This document shows positions 5,033 to 61,574 of a stretch of DNA of 64,000 nt, piece by piece. The notes under the pieces were generated by a model, which worked only from the letters and a program-made list of their open reading frames with translations, did not search any database and was not told where the DNA came from. Each line of letters starts with the position of its first letter. Position 1 is the first letter of the stretch. The stretch spans positions 14,556-78,555 of the forward strand of contig JAWKSL010000002.1 in NCBI GenBank assembly GCA_041389085.1, in the 5' to 3' direction. The stretch is from Minisyncoccota bacterium. Its GTDB lineage: Bacteria; Patescibacteriota; Minisyncoccia; UBA6257; 1-14-0-10-44-23. The translations under genes and the position numbers were made by a program.

Positions 5033-5883
5033 GCGAACGAGGGAAGAAAATTGTATTTTTTAGCATTCTAGCTATAGCGCTTCTTTTTGACTTTTTCTTG
5101 TGGAAGAAAATATTTACTCTGCATGGAGCTTCGTCGCTTGAGGTTTATTTTCTCAATGTTGGGCAAGGGGATAGCACGCTTGTGCGGTTTCCTTCGGGCG
5201 CAACTATGCTTGTAGACGCTGGTCGGCCTGGCTCTTTAAACTTGGGTGAGCTCAATTCTTTTCTTTCCGGTGGCTATATTGACCTTATTGTTATGAGTCA
5301 TCCTGACTTAGACCATTTTGGAGGTATTGTAGACGTCATTAATACTTTCAAGGTTGGGGCTTTTGTGAGCTCTGGTCGAAAGTCTGATGGGGCTGAGTTT
5401 TTGGAGCTTCAGGATGCTCTCGAGGAGTCTGGCGTTGCTTCTATTGTTGTGAATGAAGGAGATGCTTTCCGTATTGATAACAATACGGTTGCAGTTTTGG
5501 CCCCTTCTTTTTCTGAAGCCTTGTCTGGAGAACAAAACGACTCTTCGGTGGTTTTGTATGTCGATACTGAAGGTTTGGACGTTTTGATTATGGGCGATGC
5601 GAGTACCGCAGTTGAAGAGCGGCTTGTAAGTGAATACGACGTAAAGGTAGACGTGCTTCGCGTTGGGCACCACGGATCCGATACAAGTTCTTCTGAGAAG
5701 TTTCTTCTTGAAGCCTTTCCTGCCTTTTCTATTATCTCGGTTGGCGAAAATTCTTATGGACACCCAACGAGTGAGGTGCTTAGAAGACTTATGTCGGTAA
5801 GCCGTGTATTTCGTACTGATGAGAGGGGTACGTTGCTTGTACGCGAGGCGCATGGAGAGGTTGAAGTGCTTAAGGCACGCTAG
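5029..5883 (+). CDS. MBL-fold metallo-hydrolase, ComEC C-terminal lactamase-like domain, encoded as a separate ORF with an N-terminal TM anchor
   Basis: Motifs HPDLDHFGG and VGHHGS (metallo-beta-lactamase fold). Overlaps the upstream ComEC ORF by 4 bp (ATGA). Confidence 0.75.
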   Translation: MSERGKKIVFFSILAIALLFDFFLWKKIFTLHGASSLEVYFLNVGQGDSTLVRFPSGATMLVDAGRPGSLNLGELNSFLSGGYIDLIVMSHPDLDHFGGIVDVINTFKVGAFVSSGRKSDGAEFLELQDALEESGVASIVVNEGDAFRIDNNTVAVLAPSFSEALSGEQNDSSVVLYVDTEGLDVLIMGDASTAVEERLVSEYDVKVDVLRVGHHGSDTSSSEKFLLEAFPAFSIISVGENSYGHPTSEVLRRLMSVSRVFRTDERGTLLVREAHGEVEVLKAR

Positions 5884-10109: not shown

Positions 10110-10170
10110 ACTAGAACCCCTCTAGAGTTATCTCTAGAGATAACTCTAGAAGATTGCTACGTAATTTAAT

Positions 10171-10206
10171 AAGCCAACAGTCATGCATGACTGTTGGCTT
10201 ATTCGG
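10171..10206. terminator. perfect palindrome aagccaacagtcatg/catgactgttggctt followed by a T-rich run; probable lepA terminator. A second palindrome lies at 10113..10145.
   Basis: 15-bp perfect inverted repeat. Confidence 0.5.
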
Positions 10207-18948: not shown

Positions 18949-19308
18949 GTGAGTATAAATCTTATTCTTGAACTCATACTCCTTATCACTGGAGTAGCTT
19001 CTATACTTATAATTGTTCGGGCATTGCCTCGCACTTCTGAGCTTACCTCTGAAGAGCTTGCTCGATACGCTTTGAGGCCTCGCCTTAAAAAGCTCTGGGC
19101 CTGGACATTAAGCATTTCGCACGATATTTCTACGAGTGCATACAAATACTTTATGCGCGTTGTGGCCTACTTTTCAAAGCACACCCACCGCATAAGTACA
19201 TACTCTATTGCTCGTGTAGAAAAGATGAAAAGCGATAAGCGCGAAGCTATAGCGAGCGAAAAGGAGAAAGAGGAAAGTTCTGAGGTAGCCCTTGAAGATA
19301 GGGGGTAG
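18949..19308 (+). CDS. hypothetical protein with an N-terminal TM helix
   Basis: ORF only. Confidence 0.35.
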   Translation: MSINLILELILLITGVASILIIVRALPRTSELTSEELARYALRPRLKKLWAWTLSISHDISTSAYKYFMRVVAYFSKHTHRISTYSIARVEKMKSDKREAIASEKEKEESSEVALEDRG

Positions 19309-19501: not shown

Positions 19502-19633
19502 CTGCTTCGCAAAATAAATAGCAACTCTTGAAAGAGTTGCTATTTATTTTAGCTTCGCAGTGCTTTGCACAAGAGCGTCGCGAACAGTGTACTGCGTAGC
19601 CTTGGCGAAGCAGTAGTCTGTTAAAGTAGTTGT

Positions 19634-20465: not shown

Positions 20466-21254
20466 ATGTCAAAAACTTTTTACGATATGCCCGAATATCG
20501 CAAGAAGCAGAGTGCTATTACTCGATCTAGGTGGCAGTCTGGAAAGTTTGATTTTCTCCGTAAACAAGAGAAGCGCCTTTGTGTACGCAAGGATTGCTCA
20601 CAGAGCTTCGATGTAGCTCCATCTGATTTGAAAAAGTACTGTTCTTCTTCATGTGCGGCTTCGGTGAGCAATGCTCAGCGCAAAATTTCTCGTTCTACAA
20701 AGGAGAAGATCGCAAAATCTGTAAGGAAAGCGTTTTCTGGCAGGAATCACCCGCTTAAGGGGAAGCAGCTTGTTGCGCGCAAACAAGCTCAGTGCGCTAA
20801 TGAGCTTTGTGGTAAAATATTCAAGTTTGAACGCTGGAAAAAGCGTCAGTTTTGTAGCGCAGATTGCGCTATACGTGCAGTTGGCTCTCGACCAACCTCT
20901 CCTCGCGCTGCTCGTGCTAAAGCGGGCGTTCGCAAGGACTTGGGCGACGTATACTTTTTTAGTAGGTGGGAGGCAAACTATGCACGTGCTTTAAATCTTC
21001 TCGGTATAAAATGGGTTCACCAACCTAAGACCTTTTCTCTTAAGACTCAAAAATATACTCCTGACTTTTATCTACCGGAAAGTGATGAGTATGTAGAGAT
21101 TAAAAACTTTTTATCTGATTATTCGCGCAAGAGGGATAGTGAGTTTCGAGAGTTATATCCTGATCTTAAATTGACATTAATTCTTAAGGAGGATTATTTG
21201 AAGTTGCAGGACAAGCTTGCATCAAAAATTAAAACATGGGAATATAGTCGCTAA
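20466..21254 (+). CDS. hypothetical protein with two N-terminal Cys4 zinc-ribbon-like repeats and a C-terminal Vsr/DUF559-like (PD-(D/E)xK-type) endonuclease-like region
   Basis: Repeated C-x3-C...YCSSSC and C-x3-C...FCSADC; C-terminus YFFSRWEANYARALNLLGIKWVHQP...YTPDFYLPESDEYVEIK. The family call is pattern-based. Confidence 0.45.
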   Translation: MSKTFYDMPEYRKKQSAITRSRWQSGKFDFLRKQEKRLCVRKDCSQSFDVAPSDLKKYCSSSCAASVSNAQRKISRSTKEKIAKSVRKAFSGRNHPLKGKQLVARKQAQCANELCGKIFKFERWKKRQFCSADCAIRAVGSRPTSPRAARAKAGVRKDLGDVYFFSRWEANYARALNLLGIKWVHQPKTFSLKTQKYTPDFYLPESDEYVEIKNFLSDYSRKRDSEFRELYPDLKLTLILKEDYLKLQDKLASKIKTWEYSR

Positions 21255-21626: not shown

Positions 21627-21803
21627 ATGGCAGATTCAAAATTTTCAAAGAATATAGTAAAGCTACGTTGCGTAGAGTGCAATAAAACAAACTATTTCAC
21701 CCGCAAGAACAAAAAGACTGTGGAGCGCAAGCTCGAGTACAGCAAGTTTTGCAATCATAAAGACTGCAGAAAGCACACTACCCACAAAGAAGCGAAGAAA
21801 TAG
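21627..21803 (+). CDS. rpmG: 50S ribosomal protein L33 (zinc-ribbon type)
   Basis: 58-aa ORF below the track cutoff: MADSKFSKNIVKLRCVECNKTNYFTRKNKKTVERKLEYSKFCNHKDCRKHTTHKEAKK. Confidence 0.85.
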   Translation: MADSKFSKNIVKLRCVECNKTNYFTRKNKKTVERKLEYSKFCNHKDCRKHTTHKEAKK

Positions 21804-21828
21804 AGCCCTTGAAGGGCTTATTTCTTTA
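21804..21828 (+). terminator. terminator hairpin agcccttgaagggct + T-run after rpmG
   Basis: Inverted repeat followed by a T-run. Confidence 0.5.
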
Positions 21829-21831
21829 GGT

Positions 21832-21865
21832 TTCAACGGCTCACACATACGTGTGAGCCGTTGAA
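21832..21865. repeat. 34-bp perfect palindrome ttcaacggctcacacATACgtgtgagccgttgaa; member of a dispersed element family (second copy at 50818..50853)
   Basis: Near-identical palindrome is present at both loci, each adjacent to a tRNA gene. Confidence 0.7.
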
Positions 21866-21881
21866 ATTAGGGGCAATTTCT

Positions 21882-21956
21882 GCGATAGTAGGTGAGTTCT
21901 CTGGGCGCATCGGTTAACTGGTAAACCAGCGGTCTCCAAAACCGCGACTGGGGGTT
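21882..21956 (+). tRNA. tRNA-Trp (anticodon CCA), CCA encoded
   Basis: Acceptor GGGCGCA/TGCGCCT (G1-U72), D arm GGTTAACTGGTAAACC, anticodon stem GCGGT/ACCGC with loop CTCCAAA, T arm. Confidence 0.9.
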
Positions 21957-33600: not shown

Positions 33601-36600
33601 GTGAAACGATTAACGTACTCAATTTTAGCGATAGCGCTTGTTAGCGTTTTTGCTGTTTCTTATACGGCTTCGGGGCAGTCGCTTCTTCCATCAGGTAGTG
33701 GGTTTGTAGACCCCCGCACTACAGGGGGCATTCAAACTCCAAGTGCTGGAAGTTTTGATAGTGGAGGTACTGGAGGCGTACTAGACCCTGTTATTGGTCC
33801 GATTCAGAGCATAGTTCCGACAGCTCCAACGACTGGTGGAATTTCTCCAACCCCGGTAAGTCCAACGCCAAGCAGCCCAACAAGTCCAACTCGCACTACA
33901 ACTCCAGTAGACACTGTTTACATACCGATCGACATAAATCCAACCCCGGTAAGTCCAACGCCAAGCAGCCCAACAAGTCCAACAACGCCGACTGGTGGAA
34001 CTTTTGTGCCGACAGTGCCAACTACTCCTACCGCACCAATAGCACCGACGACTCCGGTGGATGAGACTCCTACCACTGGCGGAACTTTTGTAGACCCTGT
34101 TGATGTAACCCCTGAGCCTGAAACTAGAGACGAAGTTTTTGTAGACCCGGTAGATATTGATGAAACTTTCAATGGCGGAGTTGTTGATCTTGGTGGCGAC
34201 GGAGAACAGAGCGCTAAAGAAAGAGATGAAAATATTGTTCGTATTTGCACAGAGAAAGATTCGAGTGCTGATTGTCGTGAATGCTGTGACGCAATTTATA
34301 CGCCAATAATTCGCGCGTGTTCAAGTTATTCAAATGATACTGAGCGCAACAGCTGTGTTCGGAACAATCAAAATTCTCAAGCAAGCTGCAATGCTTCCTG
34401 CAATGCACTTTCGGCTAGTTTTGGAGGAGGGAGCTCTCCAGTAAGTAGCGGAGGCTCATCTGGAGGTGGCTCAAGCTCTGCTGGTAGAGTTTATATCCCT
34501 AAAGATACTCCGATAAAAGTTACCGAAGAGATAACTACCGTACCGGAAACTTCCCAGAAAGTTCGTACTGTTCGAACATACATCGATACAAACACGCAGG
34601 TTAGTCTTACGCCGCAGAAGGATTTCATCGAGGTTGCTGTTCGAAAAGACATTCCTGTAGTTTCAAGCGTAGATTTTGTTTCGTTTGAAAACGTGCCTAC
34701 CGCTGGCTCACTCCTTGCGGCTATTACTCGAAGCGAGGTGGGTGTAGATGCAAACGGAGACGTTCTACTTATGAGCGACGCTGATAGTGTGGCTGAAGTT
34801 CTTGAGCGGCGAGCGACTGTTGGTGATTTTTTTGCTGGACTTGGTAGCGCTGTGACAAATGCATTTGATTCAATTTTTGATGCTATTGGCTCACTCTTTG
34901 TATCTGCCGATGATGACATTGAAACAGTGGCGCTCGTGGAAGATAGTTCAAGCACTTTTGAGTCTGGATGTGAGTTAAAAAACCAATGTACTGGAAGCTG
35001 TACCGTTGCTTCTGGTCAAGCGGGGATTTGTGTAAGTAGCGCACGCGAGGTCTCTGGATGGGGAAGTGGAATCGATTCTTCTGGGAAAATTATTCCAGCA
35101 AAGCCTGGTGAGAGCGCCGCATTTTTGACTGGCACTGAGTCTGTTTGTTCGTGCGAAGAAGCAGAGGATTTGCCACTTCCTTTACCAAAGGAAGACGGGC
35201 CAATGTGTGCCGGGGAGCTTGCTGATAGCGGCTCGATACCAAGTATCGAGCCTGGGTTTAGCTACACTATTCCAGAAGAAGGATTTGATTTTTCTGCCGA
35301 TGCAGGTGGGACTACTTGTGAAGAAAAGCTCGTATGTGTTGGCGAGGCAAAGCAATGCGACACTATAACTCAGAATGGCCGAGAAGTTGAAGTTTGCTGG
35401 ACTGAGTGTGTAAACGAGAAAGTGCAAAATGTCTGTGAAACGACAGGGCGGCAGAGTGGAGATAGTTTTGAGTCAGACATAATAGCTAAGCTTGAGCTTA
35501 CTGCTCAGCTTGCTTGTGAGGCACAGGCTGGTGCGCAGGTTGCTGAAAGTAACGAAGTAAAAAGCCTTGCTGTTTGTGGGGCACAAGGATTCACTTGTGA
35601 TCCAGATGCAGAAAATTGTGATTGCAGTGTTACTGTCGATATAGAATTTACCTGTACTGTAGATACAGAAAGTGTAAAGGCACTTGCTGCTACGTATAAG
35701 ACACAGGAGAGCAACTCAGAGCAAAGCGGCACCGTCGACTCTGCAAGTAGTGGTGGTTCGGCAAAACAGGGAAGTACAAAGTCTGCTTCAAATGTTCATG
35801 TTTCTGGAGGAGGAACTATTGAGGTTGATCTTTCTGCTACATGGGATCGCTTACAGGTATGTAGCCTAGAGTCTGGCTCTACCGTTAATGTAAAAAGTGC
35901 AGGAGGAGCTTCTACTGATGATGGAGGGGGAGACGATGGTGGCGGTGATAGTGATGGTGGTGGTGGAGGCGGTGGTCAAGCTGGCGATTCTGAAGACTCT
36001 CTTCTTGATGAGATTGCAAAGCTGCTTGGTGGTATTTTTGGAGGCGGTTCAAATAGTGCAGAAACTCCTGCCCAAAAAGAAACGACTACAGAGGAAGATA
36101 CGACTCAAAAAGATGACGATACACAAGATAGTGAGCCAGGATTTTTGGAGCGTCTCGCTGGCAATTTGGGAGAATTTCTTGACGGACTTTTTGGTGGTAA
36201 CGAGGAAGACTTGCGCGATGGCCTTACTGGAAATGAGGATGATATAGCATTTGAAGATGGAAACTCCGTAGCACCAACTCCTACTTTTGAAGACGAAGAT
36301 GAAGACGTTGCTATTGAAGATGGCGGCGAAGATGATACGAGCTTACCAGAGAATGACTCTGACAATACTGACAACGTAGACGTAGAAGACCTTAGTGGCC
36401 CTACTGAAAACCCAACTGCTGTTGTGCCTGGAAACTCTGTAGCTCCAACTCCTGAAGAAGAAGAAGAAGAAGACGTAGTAGTAGAAGAACCTACTGATAC
36501 TGACGAGGGCGATGAGGCTGGCGACAACGTTCCTGAGCGCGACAGTGGCCACCCAGGTATTGATGATGTAGTACGTGATTTGTTTGACGACGGCACCGAT

Positions 36601-37974
36601 ACTGTTGAAGTTCCAGTAGAAGATGCTGAGCCTATAGAGGAAGATGAGCCAATAGCTGAGAATATCGAGAAAGAGCACCCGCCAATTTGGGATCTTGGTC
36701 GTTATGACACCCCTCCTCCGGTAATCGGTGATCAAAAGGAGGAAAAGCCTCCTGTTTACGGACAATGTACGCCGCCAATGCTTGGTAATTCGCTAAAGAG
36801 TGGGTATAGCTACAATACACTTGAGGCTAGCGACGTAGTTAGCCCTGCAGCATTGAAAGAGAAGGTGGGAATTCTACTCTCTGCTATGACAGCTCAAGGC
36901 GATGCAACCCAAAAGGCTGCTTTATTGAATGAAGTGGCAAGTATTGCAAGTTGTCAGCCGATTCAATGTTCTGCAAATAGCTGGTGTGGTGTTGAAGTAG
37001 TGCTCGATGGAAGCAAGAAAGGAGCTCCACACCCTGATTTCCCTGAAATTCAATGTGTTTGTGGTGCTGGCGGCCCATCTGTCGGAACTAACACCGTAGA
37101 GACTCTAAAGACTGAAGAGAAAAAGGAGGACGTAAAAGAGGAAGAGCAAACTGGCCCTGTATCATGTGTGGCAAAAGAAGCGCCACAGTGTGGTGGTGCA
37201 TGTACTGCTGAAGAAGGAGGTGGTACTTGTGGTGCTGCGCAGTTTGGTCCATTTAGTAGCTGTGATGCTGTAGATCCAAAAGATCAATTTCCAGGGGAAG
37301 CGGCAAGTGGAATGACTAAGGAGCAGTGGGATGCGGAAGTAGATAGGCTTAGCGGAGCGAACGATCTTTTGGGAGGCGGATTGGCAGGTGGCTCTCATGA
37401 GGAGGGTGGAGAGTGCCACAGCTTTACCATTCAAGCCAAGGCATGTAGCTGCTCTGGCGTTCCGAAGAAAGAAGAAACCCCAGCCCCGACAGGTGAAGTA
37501 CCTGCGAACTCTGTAGTTCCTCCAGTTCCTACTCCGAATGAAACCAAGGATAGGCAACCAGAAGTTTCTCCTGAGAAGAGGCAATGCAAAGTTCGATATG
37601 CTGTTTTGAAGTATGGTGACTGTACTCGCTGTCACACATTCGCAAATGCTGTGCAGGGAGAGCTTTCGAATCTCGGTGCTTCATCCGAGGGGCGCATTAG
37701 TTACAACCTTAGCCTTGGTAAGGGGGCGGTTGGTTACGCTGAAGCAGTTTCAGTGGCAAACCCACGCCAGATTCCAGTAGTTGTTCTTCTGGCAGACACT
37801 GACTGCGATGGCGTTTATGATCGGTACCAAGTTTTTGCCGATGGGCCTGCGAGTGGATCTTCTCCATCGAGCCTTACTTCTCGCGTGAGTGCTGCTATTC
37901 GAACTTCAGGCAGAGGTACTGGATGGTATGGAGATGCTGGGCGATTATCAAAGTTTAACTCTGTAGCACGATAA
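33601..37974 (+). CDS. giant secreted/surface protein (1457 aa) with signal peptide, Pro/Thr-rich linker, several Cys-rich modules and a long Asp/Glu-rich region
   Basis: GTG start and N-terminal signal peptide. NPTPVSPTPSSPTSPT repeated exactly twice. Multiple Cys clusters; acidic low-complexity region between aa 780 and 1000. The frame is uninterrupted. Confidence 0.7.
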   Translation: MKRLTYSILAIALVSVFAVSYTASGQSLLPSGSGFVDPRTTGGIQTPSAGSFDSGGTGGVLDPVIGPIQSIVPTAPTTGGISPTPVSPTPSSPTSPTRTTTPVDTVYIPIDINPTPVSPTPSSPTSPTTPTGGTFVPTVPTTPTAPIAPTTPVDETPTTGGTFVDPVDVTPEPETRDEVFVDPVDIDETFNGGVVDLGGDGEQSAKERDENIVRICTEKDSSADCRECCDAIYTPIIRACSSYSNDTERNSCVRNNQNSQASCNASCNALSASFGGGSSPVSSGGSSGGGSSSAGRVYIPKDTPIKVTEEITTVPETSQKVRTVRTYIDTNTQVSLTPQKDFIEVAVRKDIPVVSSVDFVSFENVPTAGSLLAAITRSEVGVDANGDVLLMSDADSVAEVLERRATVGDFFAGLGSAVTNAFDSIFDAIGSLFVSADDDIETVALVEDSSSTFESGCELKNQCTGSCTVASGQAGICVSSAREVSGWGSGIDSSGKIIPAKPGESAAFLTGTESVCSCEEAEDLPLPLPKEDGPMCAGELADSGSIPSIEPGFSYTIPEEGFDFSADAGGTTCEEKLVCVGEAKQCDTITQNGREVEVCWTECVNEKVQNVCETTGRQSGDSFESDIIAKLELTAQLACEAQAGAQVAESNEVKSLAVCGAQGFTCDPDAENCDCSVTVDIEFTCTVDTESVKALAATYKTQESNSEQSGTVDSASSGGSAKQGSTKSASNVHVSGGGTIEVDLSATWDRLQVCSLESGSTVNVKSAGGASTDDGGGDDGGGDSDGGGGGGGQAGDSEDSLLDEIAKLLGGIFGGGSNSAETPAQKETTTEEDTTQKDDDTQDSEPGFLERLAGNLGEFLDGLFGGNEEDLRDGLTGNEDDIAFEDGNSVAPTPTFEDEDEDVAIEDGGEDDTSLPENDSDNTDNVDVEDLSGPTENPTAVVPGNSVAPTPEEEEEEDVVVEEPTDTDEGDEAGDNVPERDSGHPGIDDVVRDLFDDGTDTVEVPVEDAEPIEEDEPIAENIEKEHPPIWDLGRYDTPPPVIGDQKEEKPPVYGQCTPPMLGNSLKSGYSYNTLEASDVVSPAALKEKVGILLSAMTAQGDATQKAALLNEVASIASCQPIQCSANSWCGVEVVLDGSKKGAPHPDFPEIQCVCGAGGPSVGTNTVETLKTEEKKEDVKEEEQTGPVSCVAKEAPQCGGACTAEEGGGTCGAAQFGPFSSCDAVDPKDQFPGEAASGMTKEQWDAEVDRLSGANDLLGGGLAGGSHEEGGECHSFTIQAKACSCSGVPKKEETPAPTGEVPANSVVPPVPTPNETKDRQPEVSPEKRQCKVRYAVLKYGDCTRCHTFANAVQGELSNLGASSEGRISYNLSLGKGAVGYAEAVSVANPRQIPVVVLLADTDCDGVYDRYQVFADGPASGSSPSSLTSRVSAAIRTSGRGTGWYGDAGRLSKFNSVAR

Positions 37975-39250: not shown

Positions 39251-39432
39251 CCCTAGCGACCCCTGCCTGCCGGCAGGCAGGGGTTCATAAGTCCGGTACG
39301 GTCCACACAAATAGGTTTTCGGGAGTTAGTGCTTACTACGCAAAAGCCAGATTGCTGTTTGTAGATAAATCAAAGATTTATACAAACAGGGAAGACTCTC
39401 CCTAGGTCCACCAATTGCGTTAGAATAACGAT

Positions 39433-39933
39433 ATGAAGAAGGTTTGCGTGAACGATAAATGGCAGAGTGATTATTGCTATACACCTACTGAGCCGGTAGG
39501 GAAGAATTTTGATCCAGATTTTAAGCCGCAGCTTACTCCAGCTGAAATGCTTGAGCTTGGAGTTTTTGACGGCGTGTATTTTAACGATAAGCCAGGAGAG
39601 TTTCCAAAGAGTTGGTTTACGAAAGCAAAGCTTTCTTTAGATAGAGACCCGAGGATAAACTTTTTTAAAGTAAATGCATCGAAGCCACTTTCGTACTGGC
39701 GAGAGAAAGGATGGATTTATAAAGATGATCCGCGCGGTTGGTTTCAGTGGTACGCGCGCTACTACATGGGACGAAGAATTCCAAAAGAAGATGCTCGGCA
39801 AATTCGCAGATGGAAAGCTTTTACTCGACACATTTCTCAACTAACTAAACACTGCAGACCGGGAGATTTTTCTTGTAGAAAAAAGCAGCGACAAGCGCTG
39901 CTTCATTGGGCTTACGATAGTAGGAAATTTTAG
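39433..39933 (+). CDS. conserved hypothetical protein (motifs GWFQWYARYYMGRR and RRWKAF)
   Basis: 166-aa ORF with a distinctive Trp/Arg-rich motif; the family looks familiar but I cannot name it with confidence. Confidence 0.5.
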   Translation: MKKVCVNDKWQSDYCYTPTEPVGKNFDPDFKPQLTPAEMLELGVFDGVYFNDKPGEFPKSWFTKAKLSLDRDPRINFFKVNASKPLSYWREKGWIYKDDPRGWFQWYARYYMGRRIPKEDARQIRRWKAFTRHISQLTKHCRPGDFSCRKKQRQALLHWAYDSRKF

Positions 39934-42356
39934 ATCTCAGGGAAGGGGACTTTTGGTTCTGGTTTCTTTTCAACGACTTCAAACTTTTTCATAATTTCCG
40001 CTACCACTACTTCTTTGTCGCGTCCGTAGGTGAGGCGAGAAAATTCTACTGCTTGGTCTTTTACTGCTTGGTCTCCTGGGGTTGGTGGGAGTGTAGCGAT
40101 ACTAAATGGCTGAGAGGTTTGTCCGTTGATAAGGAGCTTGAGGTAGCAGTGGTAGTTGTCGATGTTGATAAGATCTTTTTGAGTGAAGGTTGGGCCGAAT
40201 TGTTTTTCTAAAAACTCTCCATCTTCTGCTCCAACTCTAAAGCTTGCTATCGAGCCAACGTTTCCAAACACAGACTTTTTAATCTCGTCGCTGAGCTGTC
40301 CGATAAACTGGTGGGCGATAGTAAGGTTGAGCTTATACTTTCGCGCTTCAGAAAGAATAGTTTGAATTGAGTCGGTGGTAACGTTTTGAAACTCGTCGAT
40401 GTAGAGGTAAAAAGGCTTTCGATCTTTCTCTGCTGTGTCGGTGCGAGAGAAGGAAGCCATAAGAATTTTTCCTACTATGAGCAGACCGATGAGGTTTGAG
40501 TTTAGAGCTCCGAGGCGGCCCTTTGAAAGGTTTATGAGCAGTATCTTTCCTTCGTCCATAACCTGGCGCATGTTGATCGAGCTTTTCTCTTGGGTAACTA
40601 TCGGACGCATTATTTCGTTTGAAAGGAAGGTGTCGAACTTTGAAGACACATACGGAACTATGTTTTGCAGGCTTGCTTCTCCTCCGGCTTTTTCAGCTAC
40701 TTCTTTCCAGAAGGTTTTTACGAGTGGGTTGGTTGTTTTTGAGAGCTTGTAGTTTCTAAACTCCTTATCGACAAAGACGCGGTTTATCTCAAGCAGGGTG
40801 TTGCCACTTTCTGGGTCGTCCATCACCAGCGCAGTCGCGTTTCTAAAGTACTGCTCAAACATAGGGCCACCAGCAGTCTTCATGTCGTAGAGCTTGTTAA
40901 ATATCTCAAGCAGTTCGTTGATAATGAAGGTTTTTTGTTCTGGGAAGGCTGGATCGTACTCAAGCAGGTTTAGTCCGAGTGGGCGAGATACGTCGCCTGG
41001 GTTGAAGTAGATAACGTCTTTTATGCGTTCTTTCGGAATGTGGGTGAGGAGCGTTTCACAGGCATCTCCGTGTGGATCGATAAAACAAACACCCTTTCCG
41101 TTTTGAATGTCTTGGATAGCCATGTTTTCAAGAAATACAGATTTACCAGTTCCTGTTTGACCAATTACGTAGAAGTGGCGCTCGCGGTCTTTGTCTGAGC
41201 TGCGCACTGGAATTGTTTCTGAGCGGTAAATGTTGTTTCCAAGAAGAAGGCCTTCGCGCGGAATGTTGTTTGGCACTGGAGCGTACTTTGCTTTGGTGCT
41301 AGCGAGGTTTGAAATGCCAAGCTCAGTGTTTGGTAAGTGGACTATGCTTGCGAGCTCTTCAGTTGAAAGGTAGGAAACAAAAGCCTTGTCGGGAAGGCGG
41401 AAAGAAAAGTTGTAGATAAGGCGCTGCAAGTTTCGCCCCTTTTGCCTTGCTCCTTTCCACTCGTTTACTTCTGGTTGGGTGAATTGTTGAAGCGGGTTTT
41501 CTATTTCTGAAAGGAGGGCGTCTGCTCTTTCTTGCGTTTGTGCGCTGGCTACGAGCCGAAGGTTTGTCGTGAAAAGCACTTTTTGGCTTTTGCGTTCGAT
41601 AAGGTCGATAAGGCTTTGGTTGAGTACTGGCTGGATTTGAGGAGTGTCTTCTTTCTTTTGTGCAGTGCTAGACTTTTTCATTTCTTGGCGAGCCTGAGAA
41701 ACAGTCTTTCCTTGCCTAAGGTGTTTTGAAAGGCCAAAGAGGTGTTGGTGGGCTGATGATGGAGCTTTCTCGAGTACGAGCTGAAGAACGAGCCCTTCGT
41801 TTTGCTCTGCGGCTCGAGAGAAGGCGCTTAAAATGCTTCCCAGTGGATCTGACTCTATAGACTGGTATGTTTTGAGCGGGAGGTATTTATCTTTCACCTT
41901 TAGGCTGCTGGCACTGACCGCGCTTTGTGGGTGGAAGATTGTGTAGTCTGAACTTTCCTCGATATGTGCTTGAGGATAGACTCCTTCGATAGCTTTTTGG
42001 GTACTTGCTGCATAATTCTTCGGCACTGCAAGATACATTGCTAGTTCTTTGCTGGTGCTTGGCATGGCAATTTCGAAGCTGAAGAAAACCGGGCCCTTTA
42101 GTAGGGTAGTGAGCTTGCCAACGCGGATGTTTGAGAGCTGGCTAAAAAGCTGCTCCATCATCGCTATTTTTTCTTTAAGGTTTTGGCTGCCTTGAGGTCT
42201 ATCTTCTTTGTTGAGCTCGCGCGGGAGTTGGATTTTTAGAAGTTTGAGTTGAAGGGAACGCTTGATAGCGTTTTTCTTCTGGAGACGCTGAAGAAGCCAA
42301 AATATGAGAACGGCGAGTACGACTAGGATTATAAGTATTGAAACAACAAGCTTCAT
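39930..42356 (-). CDS. TraG/VirD4/TrwB-like membrane-anchored ATPase (type IV secretion / DNA-transfer coupling-protein-like), full length
   Basis: N-terminal TM helix, Walker A VIGQTGTGKS, Walker B/arginine-finger block KPFYLYIDEFQNV...ARKYKLNLTIAHQ. Paralog of the partial ORF at 1..1471. Confidence 0.7.
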   Translation of the reverse strand: MKLVVSILIILVVLAVLIFWLLQRLQKKNAIKRSLQLKLLKIQLPRELNKEDRPQGSQNLKEKIAMMEQLFSQLSNIRVGKLTTLLKGPVFFSFEIAMPSTSKELAMYLAVPKNYAASTQKAIEGVYPQAHIEESSDYTIFHPQSAVSASSLKVKDKYLPLKTYQSIESDPLGSILSAFSRAAEQNEGLVLQLVLEKAPSSAHQHLFGLSKHLRQGKTVSQARQEMKKSSTAQKKEDTPQIQPVLNQSLIDLIERKSQKVLFTTNLRLVASAQTQERADALLSEIENPLQQFTQPEVNEWKGARQKGRNLQRLIYNFSFRLPDKAFVSYLSTEELASIVHLPNTELGISNLASTKAKYAPVPNNIPREGLLLGNNIYRSETIPVRSSDKDRERHFYVIGQTGTGKSVFLENMAIQDIQNGKGVCFIDPHGDACETLLTHIPKERIKDVIYFNPGDVSRPLGLNLLEYDPAFPEQKTFIINELLEIFNKLYDMKTAGGPMFEQYFRNATALVMDDPESGNTLLEINRVFVDKEFRNYKLSKTTNPLVKTFWKEVAEKAGGEASLQNIVPYVSSKFDTFLSNEIMRPIVTQEKSSINMRQVMDEGKILLINLSKGRLGALNSNLIGLLIVGKILMASFSRTDTAEKDRKPFYLYIDEFQNVTTDSIQTILSEARKYKLNLTIAHQFIGQLSDEIKKSVFGNVGSIASFRVGAEDGEFLEKQFGPTFTQKDLINIDNYHCYLKLLINGQTSQPFSIATLPPTPGDQAVKDQAVEFSRLTYGRDKEVVVAEIMKKFEVVEKKPEPKVPFPEI

Positions 42357-50111: not shown

Positions 50112-50739
50112 TTAGCGTTTTCGAATGTAAGGCTTGACTGGTATGAGGAAACAAGACCCTATAAGGGAGATAGCGACTACTGCACCGATCAGGATTGGGA
50201 AGCCTTGGTTTGTCGCTATATACCCTCCGACTGCTGCAAAGGCTGCGCTGGTGATGTCGGTAAGAGTAAAGTAAACGCCCCACTCAACTCCTTCTTTTGC
50301 TCTGTCGATATGGCGGGTAAACATAGCCATGTAGGTAGGGAAGGTGAAGGCAGTGAAAATTCCGTAGATAAACTGCACGAGGTAAAGCTCTCCTGGGGTG
50401 TCGACGATGAGGTAGGTGAGTGGCATAAGGGAAATAAGGAAGGTAAAAACTATCATGAGCCAGAAGTCGTCTTTCTCGCCACGAATTTTGTCGATGATGT
50501 GAGCTATCGGAATTTGTAAAATGCTTTTGGTGAATAGGAAGATGGCAGCGGAAATTCCGGCTACTTCCGCGCTTCCGCCAACGATAAAGTCTTCAACAAA
50601 GAGTGCGAAGATAGGGCCTTAGGAGTCCTGAGGCACCGATGAGGATGGTGTCGGACATAATAAGGAAGCGCACTACGGGGTTTATATCGGCAAGGAAGTA
50701 GTGCATTTTTGATACTGCACGCTTTGTATGGTGGTTCAT
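50112..50739 (-). pseudogene. MFS transporter remnant: only about half a transporter, with a +1 frameshift
   Basis: MNHH...IMSDTILIGASGLL in one frame continues as GPIFALFVEDFIVGG...LIPVKPYIRKR in another. About 215 aa across 6 TM, against roughly 400 aa expected. Confidence 0.5.
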
Positions 50740-50776
50740 ATAGCTTCATTATAGGGCAGGTTTTACCCTGCCTAAA

Positions 50777-50980
50777 TTTAACGGCTCACAAACTCCAAGG
50801 AAGTACCGAATCGCGAAGTTTAACGGCTCACACGTACGTGTGAGCCGTTAAACTGGCTAGGCATCCCCAGTCTTGGCTGTCTTTCGCCCTTGCGGGCTCA
50901 AGACGAAGACTGAGAAGCCGTTAAAAGGATTGCCTAGAATGCAGTATTTATGCCTATTCTGTCCGTGTGAGCCGTTTAAC
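50777..50980. repeat. MITE-like element of about 205 bp bounded by 14-bp terminal inverted repeats (tttaacggctcaca / tgtgagccgtttaa). It contains the 36-bp palindrome gtttaacggctcacacgtacgtgtgagccgttaaac (50818..50853), also seen at 21832..21865.
   Basis: Direct sequence comparison; lies immediately upstream of tRNA-Ser(TGA). Confidence 0.55.
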
Positions 50981-51016
50981 TTGATTCTTATCTCTTAATT
51001 CTATATTCTAGTCCTA

Positions 51017-51107
51017 TTGGAGAGGTGGCTGAGTGGTCGAAGGCGGCTGTCTTGAAAACAGTTGGGGGTTCATAGCCTCCCGTGGGTTCGAATCCCACCC
51101 TCTCCGC
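51017..51107 (+). tRNA. tRNA-Ser (anticodon TGA), type II, CCA encoded
   Basis: Acceptor GGAGAGG/CCTCTCC, anticodon stem GCTGT/ACAGT with loop CTTGAAA, long variable arm, T arm GTGGGTTCGAATCCCAC. Confidence 0.9.
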
Positions 51108-51685
51108 CAAAGTCGAGATCCGAGCGCCCCTTGGGATCTGTTTTCTGTGGATAACTCATCTTGTATTAGCTTTTACTTTTTGTATAATATATATGAACGG
51201 TATGTTCTTTGAAATCAATTGTGTAGAAGTGGTTATTGCTTCGGAGATATAGATAGCTTAGCTTTAAGCTATTTGACGCCTCCTAGATTTGGGAGGGGAT
51301 TTCGCTCCTGGCATCCTTACTAGAGTCTCTCTAGAGTAGTAAGAGATGTCGAAGAGGGGCGATTTTAGGCAACAGAAGCATTTAAAAAAAATGATTGTTT
51401 GTCGGGACTACCCATAACTGCGGTTATTGGTACTACCGGAAGGTTGATCGAACTAATAACCGCGCGAATGGGTGTGTCCAAATATTATTATAAATATAAC
51501 CGTTCACCTTAATATAGAACTATCATGAAACACCTGATTAAAAGAACTGCACAACTGTACCTTCCGTATGACGGGGCGGCTGAATTAAAGCATGAAATTT
51601 TTCAGGGCTTTGTGAATACTACTTCAAGTAGTACGTATCCTGCGAGATTTGCTTTGCTAGCCGCCTCGTAGTTGTTTTTTATATT

Positions 51686-52012
51686 ATGTATTCTTTCCCA
51701 GAGTTGATTAAGAGAATTAGAAATGAGGCCAACCTTACACAGGTTGAATTTGCGAAGGCTCTAAATGTCTCAACTATCCTTGTTTCAATGGTCGAGACTG
51801 GCCAAAAGGAGGTTTCAAAGAAATTTCTTCTTCGACTTGCTGAGAGTTTAAATGTTCATCCGTCGTCTATTACCCCTTTTCTTTTTACTGAAGAAGGTGC
51901 TTCTATTGACCAACTTTCTACTATAGAAAGAAAATTTGTTGTGTGGGGTGAGAGAATGCAGGATTATTTAATACGAGATCGAGCACATCTTTTGCGCCAG
52001 TATGCGAATTAG
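51686..52012 (+). CDS. XRE-family helix-turn-helix protein
   Basis: ELIKRIRNEANLTQVEFAKALNVSTILVSMVETGQKEVS is the canonical Cro/C1-type HTH. Overlaps the RT gene by 11 nt. Confidence 0.7.
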   Translation: MYSFPELIKRIRNEANLTQVEFAKALNVSTILVSMVETGQKEVSKKFLLRLAESLNVHPSSITPFLFTEEGASIDQLSTIERKFVVWGERMQDYLIRDRAHLLRQYAN

Positions 52013-53003
52013 ACGGTACCCTAAGCTGGGGATAAGAAGCAAAAATGAGCTCGCAAAGCGCTTAAGTCACAAAAATTTTTCTACAAAAAATTCTCTTGCC
52101 CTTGTGAATGACGTTATTTCTAATTTCGATTTTTATTGGCATGACAATAAAAAGGAGTCAAATCCTCAAAAAAAGAAATATGTGCGCAGTGCAAAGTATA
52201 GCCCACTAGGAAAATTACTTACTAAAATTAACTCTAGAATTCTTGCTCCTTACGACAAGCTATTGCCAGGATTTATCTTTGGAGGCGTTCAGGGATTAAA
52301 CCATAAAGCGGCAGTGGCTTATCTCCTTGGGCAAAAAAGAAAGCGAGTTCTTTTGAAGGTGGATATCTCTAGGTTTTTTGAACAGATTAAAGATGAGAGG
52401 GTTTTCGATTTTTTTAAGCATAAGTGTGAATGTGGGGTGAGAGGGGCCAAGCTTTTAGCTAGTTTGTGTACCGTTCCCATTGGTCCTAAAAACTTTCCTA
52501 CGTCACATATCAGGACTATTGCTCGTGGCTTTGCTACGTCTCCTCGTCTCGCAATCTGGTGCAATTTAGACACTTTTATTAAACTTGACCGTCTTATTCG
52601 CACTGAATTGCGTGGTAAGGATCCGAGAATTGCAATTTATGTTGATGATATAGGCGTGACTGCAAGCAGAGTTTCAGTTGAGCAAATGGCTCTTCTTTAC
52701 AAAAAAATCGAAAAATTACTCCAGGAGGATAGAAATCAGGGCCTGCCACTTAATGCAGAGAAAACAAGAATAATAGAGCATACTGGGAAAACTTTTGACG
52801 GAAATGGTGTATTAATAACTAGTGAGTGGGGCTATGAGCACTTAGGGGCGCAAATGAAAAGAAATTCCTTAACGATTGGGAAAAAGACAAAAGCAAAATT
52901 AATTGATGTGACACAGAAGTGGGAGCGTGGTGAAGGTGGTATGCTGGTTAAGCTTCGTCGCAAAGCTTTATTGCGTCATAAGAGGTACATGGAGTCGGCT
53001 TAA
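52002..53003 (+). CDS. reverse transcriptase, 333 aa, RT domain only; retron-/Abi-/defence-associated type
   Basis: RT motifs in order: motif 1/2 YVRSAKYSPLGKLLTKINSRIL and PGFIFGGVQGLNHKAAVAY; motif A LLKVDISRFFEQI; motif B ARGFATSPRLAIWCN; motif C IAIYVDDIGV; motif D/E GLPLNAEKTRII. No maturase or endonuclease extension. Confidence 0.75.
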   Translation: MRIRRYPKLGIRSKNELAKRLSHKNFSTKNSLALVNDVISNFDFYWHDNKKESNPQKKKYVRSAKYSPLGKLLTKINSRILAPYDKLLPGFIFGGVQGLNHKAAVAYLLGQKRKRVLLKVDISRFFEQIKDERVFDFFKHKCECGVRGAKLLASLCTVPIGPKNFPTSHIRTIARGFATSPRLAIWCNLDTFIKLDRLIRTELRGKDPRIAIYVDDIGVTASRVSVEQMALLYKKIEKLLQEDRNQGLPLNAEKTRIIEHTGKTFDGNGVLITSEWGYEHLGAQMKRNSLTIGKKTKAKLIDVTQKWERGEGGMLVKLRRKALLRHKRYMESA

Positions 53004-53012
53004 TCAATACAA

Positions 53013-53040
53013 AAAAGGCCCTTGCGGGCCTTTTTAGTTT
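53013..53040. terminator. bidirectional terminator aaaaaaggcccttgcgggccttttt; the same hairpin recurs at 54475 and 55927
   Basis: Perfect hairpin with flanking A- and T-runs. Confidence 0.6.
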
Positions 53041-53162
53041 TCTTAGAGGTACTCGTTGATGGGACTTTGATTTTATTGTCAGTTTTAATAGCTGTGGTAG
53101 GATCTTTTTAGTTCATTTCACCCCGAAATTAGTTTCGGGTCAAACCACGAAAGTGAGGCACT

Positions 53163-54417
53163 ATGCGTACTGCACTTGCAGCTTTCCTTGTAGTTCTGTG
53201 TAGCCTTTGGGCTGCCGCAGCGGCTGTTGCCGATCCGGTGACGGTGCGTGTGAAGAGCAACGATGGCTCCTACTCATACGTGACGCGAGACCTTCCAGCT
53301 TCGAGCTGTGAGGTTTGGACCATCGATTTTCGGCGCGATGACGGAACGATTTGGGGCAGTGAATCTGCCCGGCCCGATCGCGCTGGCGTCGAAGATCGGG
53401 CAGCGAAGTACAACAACTTCCTGAGTTGGATCGGACAATCTCGGGAAGTCGAAGTCGAAGGAGCACTACAACAACCCCTCTCCTGCGTACTGTTCGGTTT
53501 TCAGTAGTGATACTGCAATGCTGGACAAGTTGCGTGGAGACGGGGAGGTGAATTTTCCATTCAAGACGTTGGCAAAAGCTCAGAATGAGGTCTTGGAAAG
53601 GATCCGAAACTATGTGGCAGGGGCAAGGACCTACTACGAGCAGTTCAAAGCTGCTCCCGGGCGGTCTTTCATGGAGTACGGGCGAGTCTTGGCTGACGGA
53701 ATGGCTAAGACGCAGAAGATTGAGCAGGAGCTGCTCACGCCCGCTCTGAGGTTGCCATTTGAGGTGATGAATCCCGATGGTTTTGCTCCTTTCCTAACTG
53801 GCATCGACGAGGAGGGTGTCACTTGGATGCGCTCTTGGGCTCGCGCAGTGCGAGCTGAGGAGCCGAGAATTCAGCAAGGGATTCGGACTATTCAGCAAGT
53901 GATGCGCGATAATCAAAAAGATGCACGCGAGAACTCTCGTGAGTATGACGCTGCAGTTGCTAGGATTGAGCGTCTTCGGCGCGACATCCGCAACGCCCGT
54001 GATCCTCGTATGATCGACATCCTTGAGAGGGATTTGGCGCGAGCCGAAGAGAAGCGTGACTACGCCATGGAAAGGCAATGGAGTTTTGATGAGCAGAGGG
54101 AGGCAAATGAAGAGCGAATCCGCAATCTGCGTGAGCGTGAGCTCGAGGTTCCCGAGAAGCTTTCGTTCATTCTTCAATTTTCCTACAGCTGTGGTTGCGC
54201 ACTGGAAGTGAGCGAGGTGTTTGAAGATGGCGATAGGGAGGGGGATGGTGTGGAGCGACTTAGCGATCGTTGCTCTGTATGTGGCGGTAGCGGTAAGGTT
54301 GATGTCATGGAGAACGGTGAGCTTTGGCGAGACTACATCAAGCGAATCCCAATCTCCGCGCGACCTCCGGCGCGGCGGATTACCTGCCCTGAGTGCGGTG
54401 GCACTGGCAAGCGGTGA
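53163..54417 (+). pseudogene. secreted protein with charged coiled-coil region and C-terminal DnaJ-type CxxCxGxG zinc-finger motifs, copy 1; frameshifted (split 53163..53507 and 53518..54417)
   Basis: N-terminal 45 aa are identical to copy 2. An insertion/duplication around 53400..53480 (KYNNF... versus EHYNNPSP) shifts the frame. C-terminus CSVCGGSGKV...CPECGGTGKR. Confidence 0.5.
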
Positions 54418-54474
54418 CCCACCTTGTGAGGCCTGGCGTTCTACGGAACGCCAGGCCTTTCGTTTTTTAATATC

Positions 54475-54765
54475 AAAAAAGGCCCTTGCGGGCCTTTTTA
54501 GTTTTCTTAGAGGTACTCGTTGATGGGACTTTGATTTTATTGTCAGTTTTAATAGCTGTGGTAGGATCTTTTTAGTTCATTTCACCCCGAAATTAGTTTC
54601 GGGTCAAACCACGAAAGTGAGGGCACTATGCGTACTGCACTTGCAGCTTTCCTTGTAGTTCTGTGTAGCCTTTGGGCTGCCGCAGCGGCTGTTGCCGATC
54701 CGGTGACGGTGCGTGTGAAGAGCAACGATGGCTCCTACTCATACGTGACGCGAGACCTCCCGGTC
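54475..54765 (+). repeat. about 290-bp near-identical direct repeat of 53013..53300, covering the terminator, the promoter region and the first about 45 codons
   Basis: Direct comparison. Both repeats include a truncated '...INEYL*' 3' gene end on the minus strand; an intact copy of that gene lies at 55967..56782. Confidence 0.8.
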
Positions 54766-55869
54766 TCAAGCTGTGTTCTCTGGACTGTCGACTTCCGTCG
54801 AGATGATGGAACAGTTTGGGGTAGCGAGTCTGACTCTGACAAGGCTAGGGTTGAAAAGAGGGCGGCAGCATCTCGCGCGTTTGTTAGTTTGATAGACGCT
54901 CTTGCGAAGTCTTCTTCACAAGAACACTATAACAACCCCTCTCCTATGTATTGCTCGGTTTTTAGTAGTGATACTAAGATCTTGGGTAAATTGGGTGGAG
55001 ATGGTGAGGGAAATTTTCCATTCAAGGTCTTTAGCAATGCCCGGGCCGATGTTCGTTCAAGAATTGTAAATTTTTCAACTGGCGTGCGAACTTACTACGA
55101 ACAGTTCAAGTCTGCTCCCGGGCGGTCTTTCATGGAGTATGGGCGCGCCTTGGTTGATGGAATGGCAAAGGTGCAGAAAATTGAGCAACAAATGCTGTCC
55201 CCATCTCTCAGCTTGCCGTTTGAGCTTACGAGCTCGAATGGCTTTGAGCCGTTCTTTATTGGACTCGACCGTGAGGGTACTGCGCGGATGCGTTCTTGGG
55301 CTCGTTCTATCCAAGGAGAGGAGGCGATCATCCAAAAGGAGATTGAGACTGTCCGGTGGGCAATGCGTGAAAACAAAAAGCTCGCCGGCCTCTACTCACG
55401 TGAGCATGATGTTGCGGTTGCGAAGATTGAGCGCCTTAGGCGCAGGCTGCGCTCGGAGCGCGATCCTGAAAGGATTGATGCTTTGAAGCAGGATTTAGAT
55501 CTCGCAATTGAAAAGCGTGATCGCGCTCTTGAGCGGCGCTGGGAGTTTGAACAGATTGAAGATGACGATGAGGAGAAGCTTTTCGATCTCCGTGCGCGCG
55601 AAGGTAAAATTCCTGATAGGCTTTCATTTGTTTCTAGTTTTGCTCGTAGCTGCGGCTTCGAGTTAGATGCTGAGACGGTCTTTGGTAGTCCCGACCCAGG
55701 TCAAGAAGCGAGCGGGGATAGTTGTCCTACCTGCAAAGGCACTGGACGAATTCATCCTCAACGTCGTTCTTCTTCGGACGATGCTCCTCCTGGCTCTAGT
55801 ACAGCCAGTCCTGCACTTTCGGAGTCTGGAGAAACTTGCCCCACATGCGGTGGCACTGGCAAGCGGTGA
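54628..55869 (+). CDS. secreted protein with charged coiled-coil region and two C-terminal CxxCxGxG zinc-finger motifs, copy 2, intact (413 aa)
   Basis: Signal peptide MRTALAAFLVVLCSLWAAAAAVA; ER/K-rich helical region; CPTCKGTGRI...CPTCGGTGKR. GC-rich. Confidence 0.55.
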   Translation: MRTALAAFLVVLCSLWAAAAAVADPVTVRVKSNDGSYSYVTRDLPVSSCVLWTVDFRRDDGTVWGSESDSDKARVEKRAAASRAFVSLIDALAKSSSQEHYNNPSPMYCSVFSSDTKILGKLGGDGEGNFPFKVFSNARADVRSRIVNFSTGVRTYYEQFKSAPGRSFMEYGRALVDGMAKVQKIEQQMLSPSLSLPFELTSSNGFEPFFIGLDREGTARMRSWARSIQGEEAIIQKEIETVRWAMRENKKLAGLYSREHDVAVAKIERLRRRLRSERDPERIDALKQDLDLAIEKRDRALERRWEFEQIEDDDEEKLFDLRAREGKIPDRLSFVSSFARSCGFELDAETVFGSPDPGQEASGDSCPTCKGTGRIHPQRRSSSDDAPPGSSTASPALSESGETCPTCGGTGKR

Positions 55870-55966
55870 CCCACCTTGTGAGGCCTGGCGTTCTACGGAA
55901 CGCCAGGCCTTTCGTTTTTTAATATCAAAAAAGGCCCTTGCGGGCCTTTTTAGTTTTCTTAGATTC

Positions 55967-60364: not shown

Positions 60365-61574
60365 ATGAATCAGCAGCCACTTCCACAAGCAGAGCCTGTT
60401 TTTCTTGTTGAAACAGATAAGATTGTCGCAAACCCTTATCAGCCGCGACGACATTTTGATGAAGAAAAGCTTAAGGACTTGGCGAACTCTATTCGTGAGC
60501 TGGGAATTTTGCAGCCACTAGTAGTAACTAAAGTAGAAGAAGACAGTCCGCAGGGGCTTGCTATTCGCTACGAGCTTATCGCCGGAGAGCGACGACTTCC
60601 GTGCATCTCGCATGCTTGGGCTTGCTCGTGTGCCAGCTATTGTGAAGAACGTGAAACTCGATCAGCACCGCCTTGAAATGGCGATTGTTGAAAACGTGCA
60701 GCGCGCAGACCTTAACGCTATTGAAGCTGCAAAGGCTTACAATCGTTTGCAGGATGAGTTTAATCTCACGCAACGTGAGATAGCGAGCAGGGTAGGAAAG
60801 AGTAGAGCTTCGATTGCAAACACAATGCGCCTTTTGAGTTTGCCAAGCGAAGTGCAAGAGGCAGTTGGCTCTGGGAGGGTAAGCGAAAGCCAAGCGCGCC
60901 TTTTGATGACTATCGACGATGCGGCGAGTCAGAGCAGAATTTTTAAAGAAATATTGTTTAAGAACTTAAGTGTTCGTGAACTTAAGAATGAAATAGAGAA
61001 GTATCGTCGCGATGCTCGTGTACCACAAAAGCAATCTATGTTTAGCAGAGACCCTGTGGCTCTAAACCTGCAGAGAGCTCTTGAAGAGTTTTTGGGTGCT
61101 GATGTGCGCCTTGATTCGAGCGGAGAGAGCGGAAAGATAACAATTCGTTTTCAATCTAAGGAAGAGCTTCAGGCTATTGTAGAAAAGATGACCTCACACG
61201 AGAGTGTTGATACGCACCAGACTGTAAGCAATATGTATGAGCGCACTCAGCAGACCGATGTAAGCGGCATGATGGGACTTGATACCTCACTTTCAGAACC
61301 ATCCTCCTTCGCTAACCCTCCTTCGCACGAAGCTACGGAAGGGCAAGGAGCTATGGCGGACAAGGAGCCTGTGCGCGAAGAGCCTGTTCAAGTAGAAAAT
61401 AGTTTTGATATGAGCGACGTTGTTGCGCCACCAGCTGTACAGTCAGAAATAGAAGATACTTTCCACACTACTGAGCAAGCGCATGAAGATTCTTTGCCGA
61501 TGGAGCAGCCTGAGCACGACATACTTGCTAGCTACGGATTTGGAGGAGAGGATACGCAAAGCAACTCTTTTTAA
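60365..61574 (+). CDS. parB: ParB/Spo0J partition protein, apparent +1 frameshift near 60598 (split ORFs 60365..60676 and 60558..61574)
   Basis: ParB box YELIAGERRL...RASRMLGLARVPAIV is split between two frames at cttCCgtgc. HTH and C-terminal dimerisation regions follow. Confidence 0.7.

Follow-up and report, generated by a model that had tools for sequence, protein, structure and literature searches.

The palindromic sequences at two loci of the window (the whole stretch of 64,000 nucleotides, or 64 kb, analysed here, from a Candidatus Paceibacterota MAG) are, in the reading that we favour on balance, copies of a short interspersed REP-like hairpin repeat of the terminator type that is dispersed in the Patescibacteria. 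Copy 1 (21831-21866) is located between rpmG and tRNA-Trp, and copy 2 (50817-50854), accompanied by half-copies, in the divergent spacer between a fragmented minus-strand MFS gene and tRNA-Ser(tga). An earlier note on this DNA had reported palindromes at both sites, had placed both copies between genes and had considered a REP-like repeat family as one possible explanation. It was right about the sites and their intergenic position, and the family is borne out by 68 loci with exact 12-nt arms in a species-representative genome collection, approximately 53 of which come from Patescibacteria. The closest further relatives of one window protein are ~62% identical.

Copy 1, to which no strand is assigned, has 16-bp arms (TTTCAACGGCTCACAC / GTGTGAGCCGTTGAAA) and a 4-nt loop, ATAC, which is not palindromic; it begins 28 nt after the rpmG stop codon, ends about 36-41 nt before tRNA-Trp and has a predicted RNA fold of -29.9 kcal/mol (z -9.6). 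Its arm has the form ttCAACGG...CCGTTGaa and not ttAACGG, a base change that is compensated on both arms. Copy 2, also without an assigned strand, is a perfect 38-bp palindrome, AGTTTAACGGCTCACACGT followed directly by ACGTGTGAGCCGTTAAACT, with 19-nt arms that are 100% complementary and enclose no loop; its RNA fold reaches -31.5 kcal/mol (z -7.2), and its central 28 nt are identical in the family copies of two other loci (L044 and L155). The earlier description of a perfect palindrome of 34-36 bp holds for copy 2, where it extends over 38 bp, but not for copy 1, with its ATAC loop and the arm base CAACGG. Within the 64 kb, the exact 12-mer AACGGCTCACAC occurs five times, solely at the two loci, with one additional copy carrying one mismatch at 50780; six of the seven occurrences of the 9-mer AACGGCTCA (0.44 expected) are likewise found at these loci. 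No further family copies were detected in the window, relaxed searches included.

Copy 1 would be redundant as a terminator, since rpmG already possesses a canonical intrinsic terminator at 21803-21819 (plus strand; GAGCCCTTGAAGGGCTT then ATTTCTTT). The outer end of its right arm coincides with the -35 hexamer of the sole predicted tRNA-Trp promoter, which is of the sigma-70 type (21861-21889, plus strand; TTGAAA, 17-nt spacer, TG-GATAGT; consensus match only), and copy 1 may represent a surplus hairpin lodged between the terminator of rpmG and the promoter of tRNA-Trp. Copy 2 sits in a divergent promoter region. Because a T-rich tail is missing from both copies and copy 2 does not follow a gene, we regard both as family copies without an evident terminator job.

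Another important question is whether the segment of approximately 205 bp around copy 2 (50777-50980) is a mobile unit, as the earlier note had proposed, describing it as a MITE bounded by 14-bp terminal inverted repeats (TIRs). Besides copy 2, this region contains a solitary left-arm copy at 50774-50791 (plus strand; AAATTTAACGGCTCACAA; 94% identical to the copy 2 left arm), a solitary right-arm copy at 50961-50982 (plus strand; GTCCGTGTGAGCCGTTTAACTT; 90% identical to the copy 2 right arm, half-loop GT.C included) and a partial right-arm remnant of 10 nt at 50916-50925 (plus strand; AGCCGTTAAA), the last of which was absent from the earlier note. An unrelated imperfect hairpin with no match elsewhere is also part of the cluster (50868-50912, plus strand; -21.8 kcal/mol, z -2.4). 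The right-arm copy ends 36 nt before tRNA-Ser(tga), and the copy 2 locus lies 36-170 nt upstream of this gene. The order of the arms is L, L, R, R, R, which is nested and not tandem. The left TIR (50777-50790) is indeed complementary to the right arm of copy 2 (50839-50852) at 14 of 14 positions, but the outermost arms (50774-50790 and 50966-50982) are only 88% complementary over 17 nt (inverted arms of 22 nt at 91% are also present), and they pair with the inner palindrome too. A second internal inverted repeat, ctaggca/tgcctag, is present as well (50858-50864 and 50932-50938), but by our own rough estimate a 7-nt inverted repeat within 200 nt is at about chance level. Folding of the segment, also suggested earlier, showed that a 221-nt stretch at copy 2 is far more stable than its shuffled versions (z -6.1 on the plus strand and -8.9 on the minus strand), because of its complementary arms.

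Inverted terminal arms and a strong fold would be expected of a non-autonomous TIR-bounded MITE; the palindrome at 21831 would then be a collapsed copy, formally two abutting TIRs placed back to back, and TTAGG is indeed found on both flanks of copy 1. Terminal inverted repeats and an intergenic position are also shared with MITEs such as Correia elements. We nevertheless consider this reading quite improbable. The inner 106 nt of the segment (50855-50960) match neither other parts of the window nor any of 190 related loci, no target-site duplication was found at the 205-bp borders, and a search of the window, plasmids and phages revealed neither an IS nor a transposase bearing these ends. Target-site duplications, which the earlier note had proposed to tabulate, are no better represented in the family: flanking direct repeats across 54 copies are no commoner than in a shifted control, the TTAGG pair being an isolated case. 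Moreover, the unit elsewhere is always the hairpin alone. Since its inner DNA matches nothing else, we read the segment as a local cluster, apparently an intact copy and three eroded half-copies gathered together with unrelated DNA, and not as a transposable unit; in this respect it resembles a small BIME-type cluster. It is possible that one copy was split at its apex by DNA containing another copy. Integron attC sites (57-141-nt imperfect palindromes with extrahelical bases, in cassette arrays) were also considered and rejected, the elements being solitary, 27-40 nt long and perfect in their arms; the attC ends RYYYAAC/GTTRRRY are fitted by copy 2 alone (GTTTAAC/GTTAAAC). Just upstream of the cluster, the MFS transporter gene is reduced to fragments of 114 aa and 48 aa (50112-50739, minus strand) and is probably a pseudogene.

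The strong fold of the 205-bp stretch (z -6 to -9) would also fit a non-coding RNA gene, for example the msr-msd of a retron or a guide unit of the TIGR stem-loop type, associated with the type VI retron found at 51140-53003, directly after tRNA-Ser(tga). This retron has the published order of ncRNA, small protein, HTH and RT: a structured stretch at ~51190-51510, closed by GAACGGTAT/ATAACCGTTC (z -4.9), a candidate small-protein ORF at 51525-51671, an HTH protein at 51686-52012 (PADLOC HTH_VI, 7.7e-13) and an RT at 52002-53003 (RT_VI, 1.6e-24). The HTH and RT pair is found 700 nt downstream of the 205-bp stretch, and TIGR stem-loop arrays with palindromic stems do exist in Patescibacteria; even so, we give this reading almost no credence. 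An msr-msd was rejected because tRNA-Ser and its terminator lie between the stretch and the retron, which has its own candidate ncRNA in the structured region upstream of it. A TIGR array, for which the criteria were palindromic stems that surround a box C, two spacers and a box D, a tandem arrangement and an adjacent tas gene, was rejected because the loops of 0-14 nt are too short, box C (TGATGA) was not seen in 50770-50990, the arms are nested, and no Nop-domain protein was found among the annotated ORFs of the window. Transposases and integrases were likewise not found among the annotated ORFs of the 64-kb window, nor was an island att repeat of the tRNA-Ser 3' end found in it. Rfam searches gave only tRNAs and noise, both at the gathering threshold for the whole window and in E-value mode for 50700-51020, and the palindrome occurs in many genomes beside varied genes.

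These data raise a key question: do the two loci belong to a true family, or are they ordinary terminator hairpins that evolved independently and share their stem sequence by coincidence? The 68 loci were obtained in a scan of one genome per species (596 Gb) for AACGGCTCACAC-N(0-30)-GTGTGAGCCGTT, in which only exact arms were accepted. The Patescibacteria hosts represent at least three deep lineages and include Saccharibacteria (10 loci in 9 MAGs), Kaiser-, Taylor-, Morani-, Pacei-, Doudna-, Harrison- and Yanofskybacteria, as well as unlabelled MAGs, two of which (22 copies) are connected to labelled Paceibacterota by synteny or by common repeat units. Exact copies reach 12 and 10 in two MAGs, with degenerate ones in addition, and the number of copies seen in a genome is low, about 12-16 at the most; the distribution within Patescibacteria is patchy, few species representatives being matched. 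The matches outside Patescibacteria (one orthologous locus in ~10 Rothia assemblies, one locus in Pseudoflavonifractor and three singletons) are taken as chance hairpins, and Rfam found nothing at their hairpins. In the Rothia assemblies (L003, L005, L022, L023, L025, L038, L045, L049, L058 and L065), the orthologous intergenic hairpin has identical 12-nt arms and a 14-20-nt loop and is flanked by the same two genes, and the match is probably due to chance. Some Actinobacteria host Saccharibacteria. The viral contigs, plasmids and phages that were scanned contained 0 family copies.

Coincidence would account for these few non-Patescibacteria matches, and the window does contain 28 perfect hairpins whose stems measure 9 bp or more, the majority of which are unique terminators. 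A relaxed metagenome scan with 10-nt arms, kept out of the statistics because of its mixed content, also yielded, among the matches listed, one 12-member orthologous locus and probably unrelated matches inside long ORFs. However, it would be difficult to explain in this way five exact 12-mers in 64 kb, or the 12 and 10 copies in single MAGs. At approximately one strong hairpin per 6 kb, we roughly estimate that fewer than one chance match would be expected in Patescibacteria, and on this rough estimate the matches observed there exceed chance ~100-fold. In addition, we examined 218 other strong hairpins from 1.26 Mb of retrieved DNA, and the only arms among them that recur between unrelated contigs are variants of the same core, that is, AACGGCTCA with a different inner stem (L042, L055, L070, L086 and L164), which were not selected by the search pattern. 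An origin by coincidence is therefore highly improbable in our view, and we regard the family as real and lineage-restricted. We did not find it described in Rfam or in the searchable literature, where nothing relevant turned up on the sequence, on REP/RAYT in the Patescibacteria or on CPR uptake sequences.

The repeated unit outside the window is the hairpin of roughly 27-40 bp with perfect arms; the flanks are unique, the loop varies from 1 to 14 nt in length and flips in orientation, and neither cargo nor a recurrent neighbouring gene was found across the family loci. The constant part is the stem base, AACGGCTCA(C)(AC), with its reverse complement; the apical stem and the loop vary. Outside the stem base, there are 2-3 base pairs that are variable yet complementary. 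The two positions outside AACGG are complementary in 50 and 47 of 54 copies, compared with ~26-28 in shuffles (our statistics pool copies from a few multi-copy MAGs, and this covariation test was also rerun without the largest group). These outer two pairs are of 3-4 types, and complementarity reaches chance level by position 4-5. This extent defines the unit as a stem of ~14-15 bp whose middle is conserved. The 2 nt flanking the 54 copies are complementary, not direct, and the flank consensus is A/T-rich (AAAWTA-stem-TAWTTT), with an A-run opposite the T-rich side of many copies. Half-sites accumulate beside full palindromes, with 13 within 250 nt compared with ~3 expected (e.g., L043, L074, L115 and L155). 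In one Patescibacteria MAG, each of two family copies (L006 136-160 and L014 2468-2492) is followed by the promoter-like string aatggcgTATAT, and the repeated unit there seems to be the hairpin plus a -10-like box.

One result counts against the explanation that we favour: the centre is self-complementary in 8 of the 13 copies having 4-nt centres (p=2e-7), for which selection for an RNA hairpin does not account. As a counterpoint, long perfect palindromes are generally common in the genome from which the window comes. Numerous examples with loops of 0-2 nt and a total length of 26 to 40 bp were observed (3337-3364, 10121-10150, 10168-10203, 19511-19550 and 39259-39284 in the window), most of them unique and located at the ends of genes or tRNAs. 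Bacteria with SbcCD do not usually maintain such long perfect palindromes stably, and they may be tolerated or generated in this genome.

With gene contexts assigned by a simple longest-ORF rule, 38 of the 54 Patescibacteria copies (70%) follow the 3' end of a gene or tRNA at a distance of at most 150 nt. At least four T in the next 8 nt follow 28 of these 38, compared with a background of 21%, and five copies begin 9-13 nt after a tRNA. Because most copies adjoin 3' ends and are flanked by A- and T-runs, it is plausible that the family consists of bidirectional intrinsic terminators: transcribed from either side, the copies would fold into a 14-19-bp stem that would also protect the 3' end. 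The terminator role suggested in the earlier note is therefore plausible for the family, but finds no T-rich tail to support it at the two window copies. The association with tRNA genes, also proposed there, is not significant: a tRNA is no more than 300 nt away from 10 of 56 copies, and the expectation from intergenic positions of the same loci is 12.4% (p=0.15); half of these 10 copies are downstream of the tRNA, not upstream.

A comparison with a related genome provides additional evidence on the turnover of the element. One locus (L063), from the MAG with 10 copies, is syntenic with the window and contains a homologue of the ORF at 18949-19308, tRNA-Tyr, tRNA-Thr, rpmG and tRNA-Trp; in the rpmG region, 72% of the nucleotides are identical. 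Nine nucleotides past tRNA-Tyr, L063 has the start of a family copy; in the window, this slot is occupied by the unrelated palindrome at 19511-19550, which has 19-bp arms. Conversely, the rpmG-tRNA-Trp spacer of L063 contains the rpmG terminator and no family copy. Since the element occupies different slots in related genomes, it is gained and lost and not inherited as an orthologous terminator. The earlier note had allowed that its palindromes might simply align to a conserved intergenic terminator in related taxa; this is contradicted by the non-orthologous sites at which the element sits in related genomes. In the slot after tRNA-Thr, L063 (6580-7440) contains, as seen by eye, an ORF with a LAGLIDADG-like motif followed by two apparent tRNA halves ~200 nt apart, for which ARAGORN called no tRNA and Rfam gave no intron match. 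After tRNA-Thr in the window, there is a Cys-rich ORF (20466-21254) with a weak match to phage endonuclease I (1.2e-4, below the curated cut-off); homologues of this ORF, which lies beside copy 1, were not found near other family copies.

The most peculiar copies are those in coding DNA. In four Kaiserbacteria-type genomes (L004 5123-5149; L062 6857-6883; L189; L190), a 27-nt family palindrome lies in frame inside murD and encodes TAHT(T/P)CEP. The right arm is identical in all four, the left arm has one synonymous mismatch in two of them, and the MurD proteins are 63-84% identical to the L004 query. An insertion was rejected because the alignment of MurD with its homologues is gap-free at this place, and it is very unlikely that an exact 27-mer arose by chance from ancestral murD codons. 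In view of the missing indel, the murD case would fit sequence-specific selection or gene conversion better than insertion, and it points to selection for, or conversion to, a specific sequence.

The murD copies are the main reason why we keep as a serious, although rather unlikely, rival the reading in which the palindrome is a recognition site for a conserved trans-acting factor of Patescibacteria and not a selfish or structural repeat, the stem base AACGGCTCA being what is selected. Candidates for such a factor would include proteins that bind DNA or RNA, nucleases, processing or termination factors, and receptors for DNA uptake (cf. the Neisseria DUS pairs). Several features agree with it: the identity of the arms in at least three deep lineages at non-orthologous sites, the concentration of conservation at the stem base with a variable apex, the exact in-frame palindrome in murD without an indel and with an invariant right arm in four genomes, and the tandem half-sites beside some copies (L115, L155 and the window). 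Set against these are the spacing of the half-sites, which varies from 0 to 30 nt and therefore excludes a rigid dimeric operator, the patchy distribution among Patescibacteria, with few species representatives matched, and the lack of any recurrent regulon-like gene in the neighbourhood of the copies. Away from palindromes, solitary half-sites show hardly any enrichment (60 8-mer matches compared with 38 expected), and no candidate factor was found in this analysis. For a dimeric operator or parS, rejected on the same grounds of spacing and neighbouring genes, a search of the whole 64 kb with up to 3 mismatches allowed also revealed no canonical parS. T4SS coupling-protein-like ATPases, ComEC split over two ORFs and ParB are encoded in the window (2-1471, 3635-5883, 39930-42356 and 60558-61574).

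The role of an uptake receptor deserves separate discussion. Inverted pairs of DUS form terminators, and the layout of the family resembles such pairs: as in Neisseria DUS and Pasteurellaceae USS pairs, a conserved 9-12-nt inverted word forms the outer stem of A/T-flanked bidirectional terminators, and the lineages are naturally competent, ComEC being present in the window. However, uptake sequences occur roughly once per kb, and we estimate the density of the family at ~1 per 12-30 kb on copy-bearing contigs, which is far lower; solitary copies and copies in coding regions are rare. The DUS has a CTG core, from which the word of the family differs. A DNA uptake sequence was thus rejected, the 9-mer being found only 7 times in 64 kb and the 8-mer being near chance off palindromes (60 vs 38). 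In its general form, the proposal, in which a factor conserved throughout the Patescibacteria recognises the hairpin with the stem base AACGGCTCA/TGAGCCGTT as a sequence-specific signal, is a tentative and somewhat doubtful one. If it is true, the factor would act in termination or RNA processing, in recombination or gene conversion, or in DNA uptake, and the signal would account for the same 9-12-nt word at non-orthologous sites in Saccharibacteria, Paceibacteria and Doudnabacteria, for the covariation of the outer pairs and for the in-frame murD palindrome without an insertion.

The REP-like reading, which we prefer, relies on the traits that the family has in common with known repeats, being a short extragenic palindrome in multiple copies at non-orthologous intergenic sites. 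Like the REP/BIME/REPIN elements of Proteobacteria, which are mobilised by RAYT Y1 transposases, family members are 20-40-nt extragenic palindromes at gene 3' ends, with a conserved stem and a variable loop, without cargo or target-site duplication, in either orientation and in occasional local clusters, and in both cases a function in termination and mRNA stabilisation is proposed. Nevertheless, there are differences. REP families are usually species-specific, whereas the arms of our family are common to several classes, which is unusual. REP arms are imperfect and those of the family perfect, and the copy number of the family is low by comparison (2 loci per 64 kb in the window, up to about 12-16 per MAG). 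The GTAG/CGTC tag of REPs was not evident in the family copies and flanks inspected; tagged REP super-families (GTAG, CGTC) have been described (PMC3733652). If the reading is correct, the element may be spread in trans by an enzyme or a conversion process with specificity for the stem base in single-stranded or cruciform DNA, which would resemble REP with its RAYT/Y1 transposase, but no RAYT-like or Y1 (HUH) transposase was found in the 64-kb window or between paired copies of other loci. Small hairpin repeats are also represented by the Rickettsia palindromic elements (RPEs) and by the mitochondrial hairpin elements (RHE; PMC2800124). RPEs can lie in frame within genes, as the murD copy does, but the murD copy is not an insertion, and the element of our family is much shorter than an RPE.

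Extremely little is known about the non-coding DNA signals of Patescibacteria (CPR), which make up a large part of bacterial diversity. A hairpin word common to distant classes could serve as a marker for transcript 3' ends and for genome annotation, and also as a handle on the enzyme or binding protein that reads it; moreover, the family offers a test case for the spread of short palindromes without transposon hallmarks. For the window itself, the message is modest, and the link with tRNA genes is incidental.

Two further observations concern the window outside the two loci. The ORF at 33601-37974 encodes 1457 aa and has no Pfam match at E<=0.001. Downstream of the retron, a module of ~1.46 kb is tandemly duplicated (53010-54473 and 54474-55963), its pieces being 77-100% identical. 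The module includes two genes of no assigned function with CXXC motifs, and terminator pairs are repeated within it at 53012, 54429/54476 and 55881/55928.
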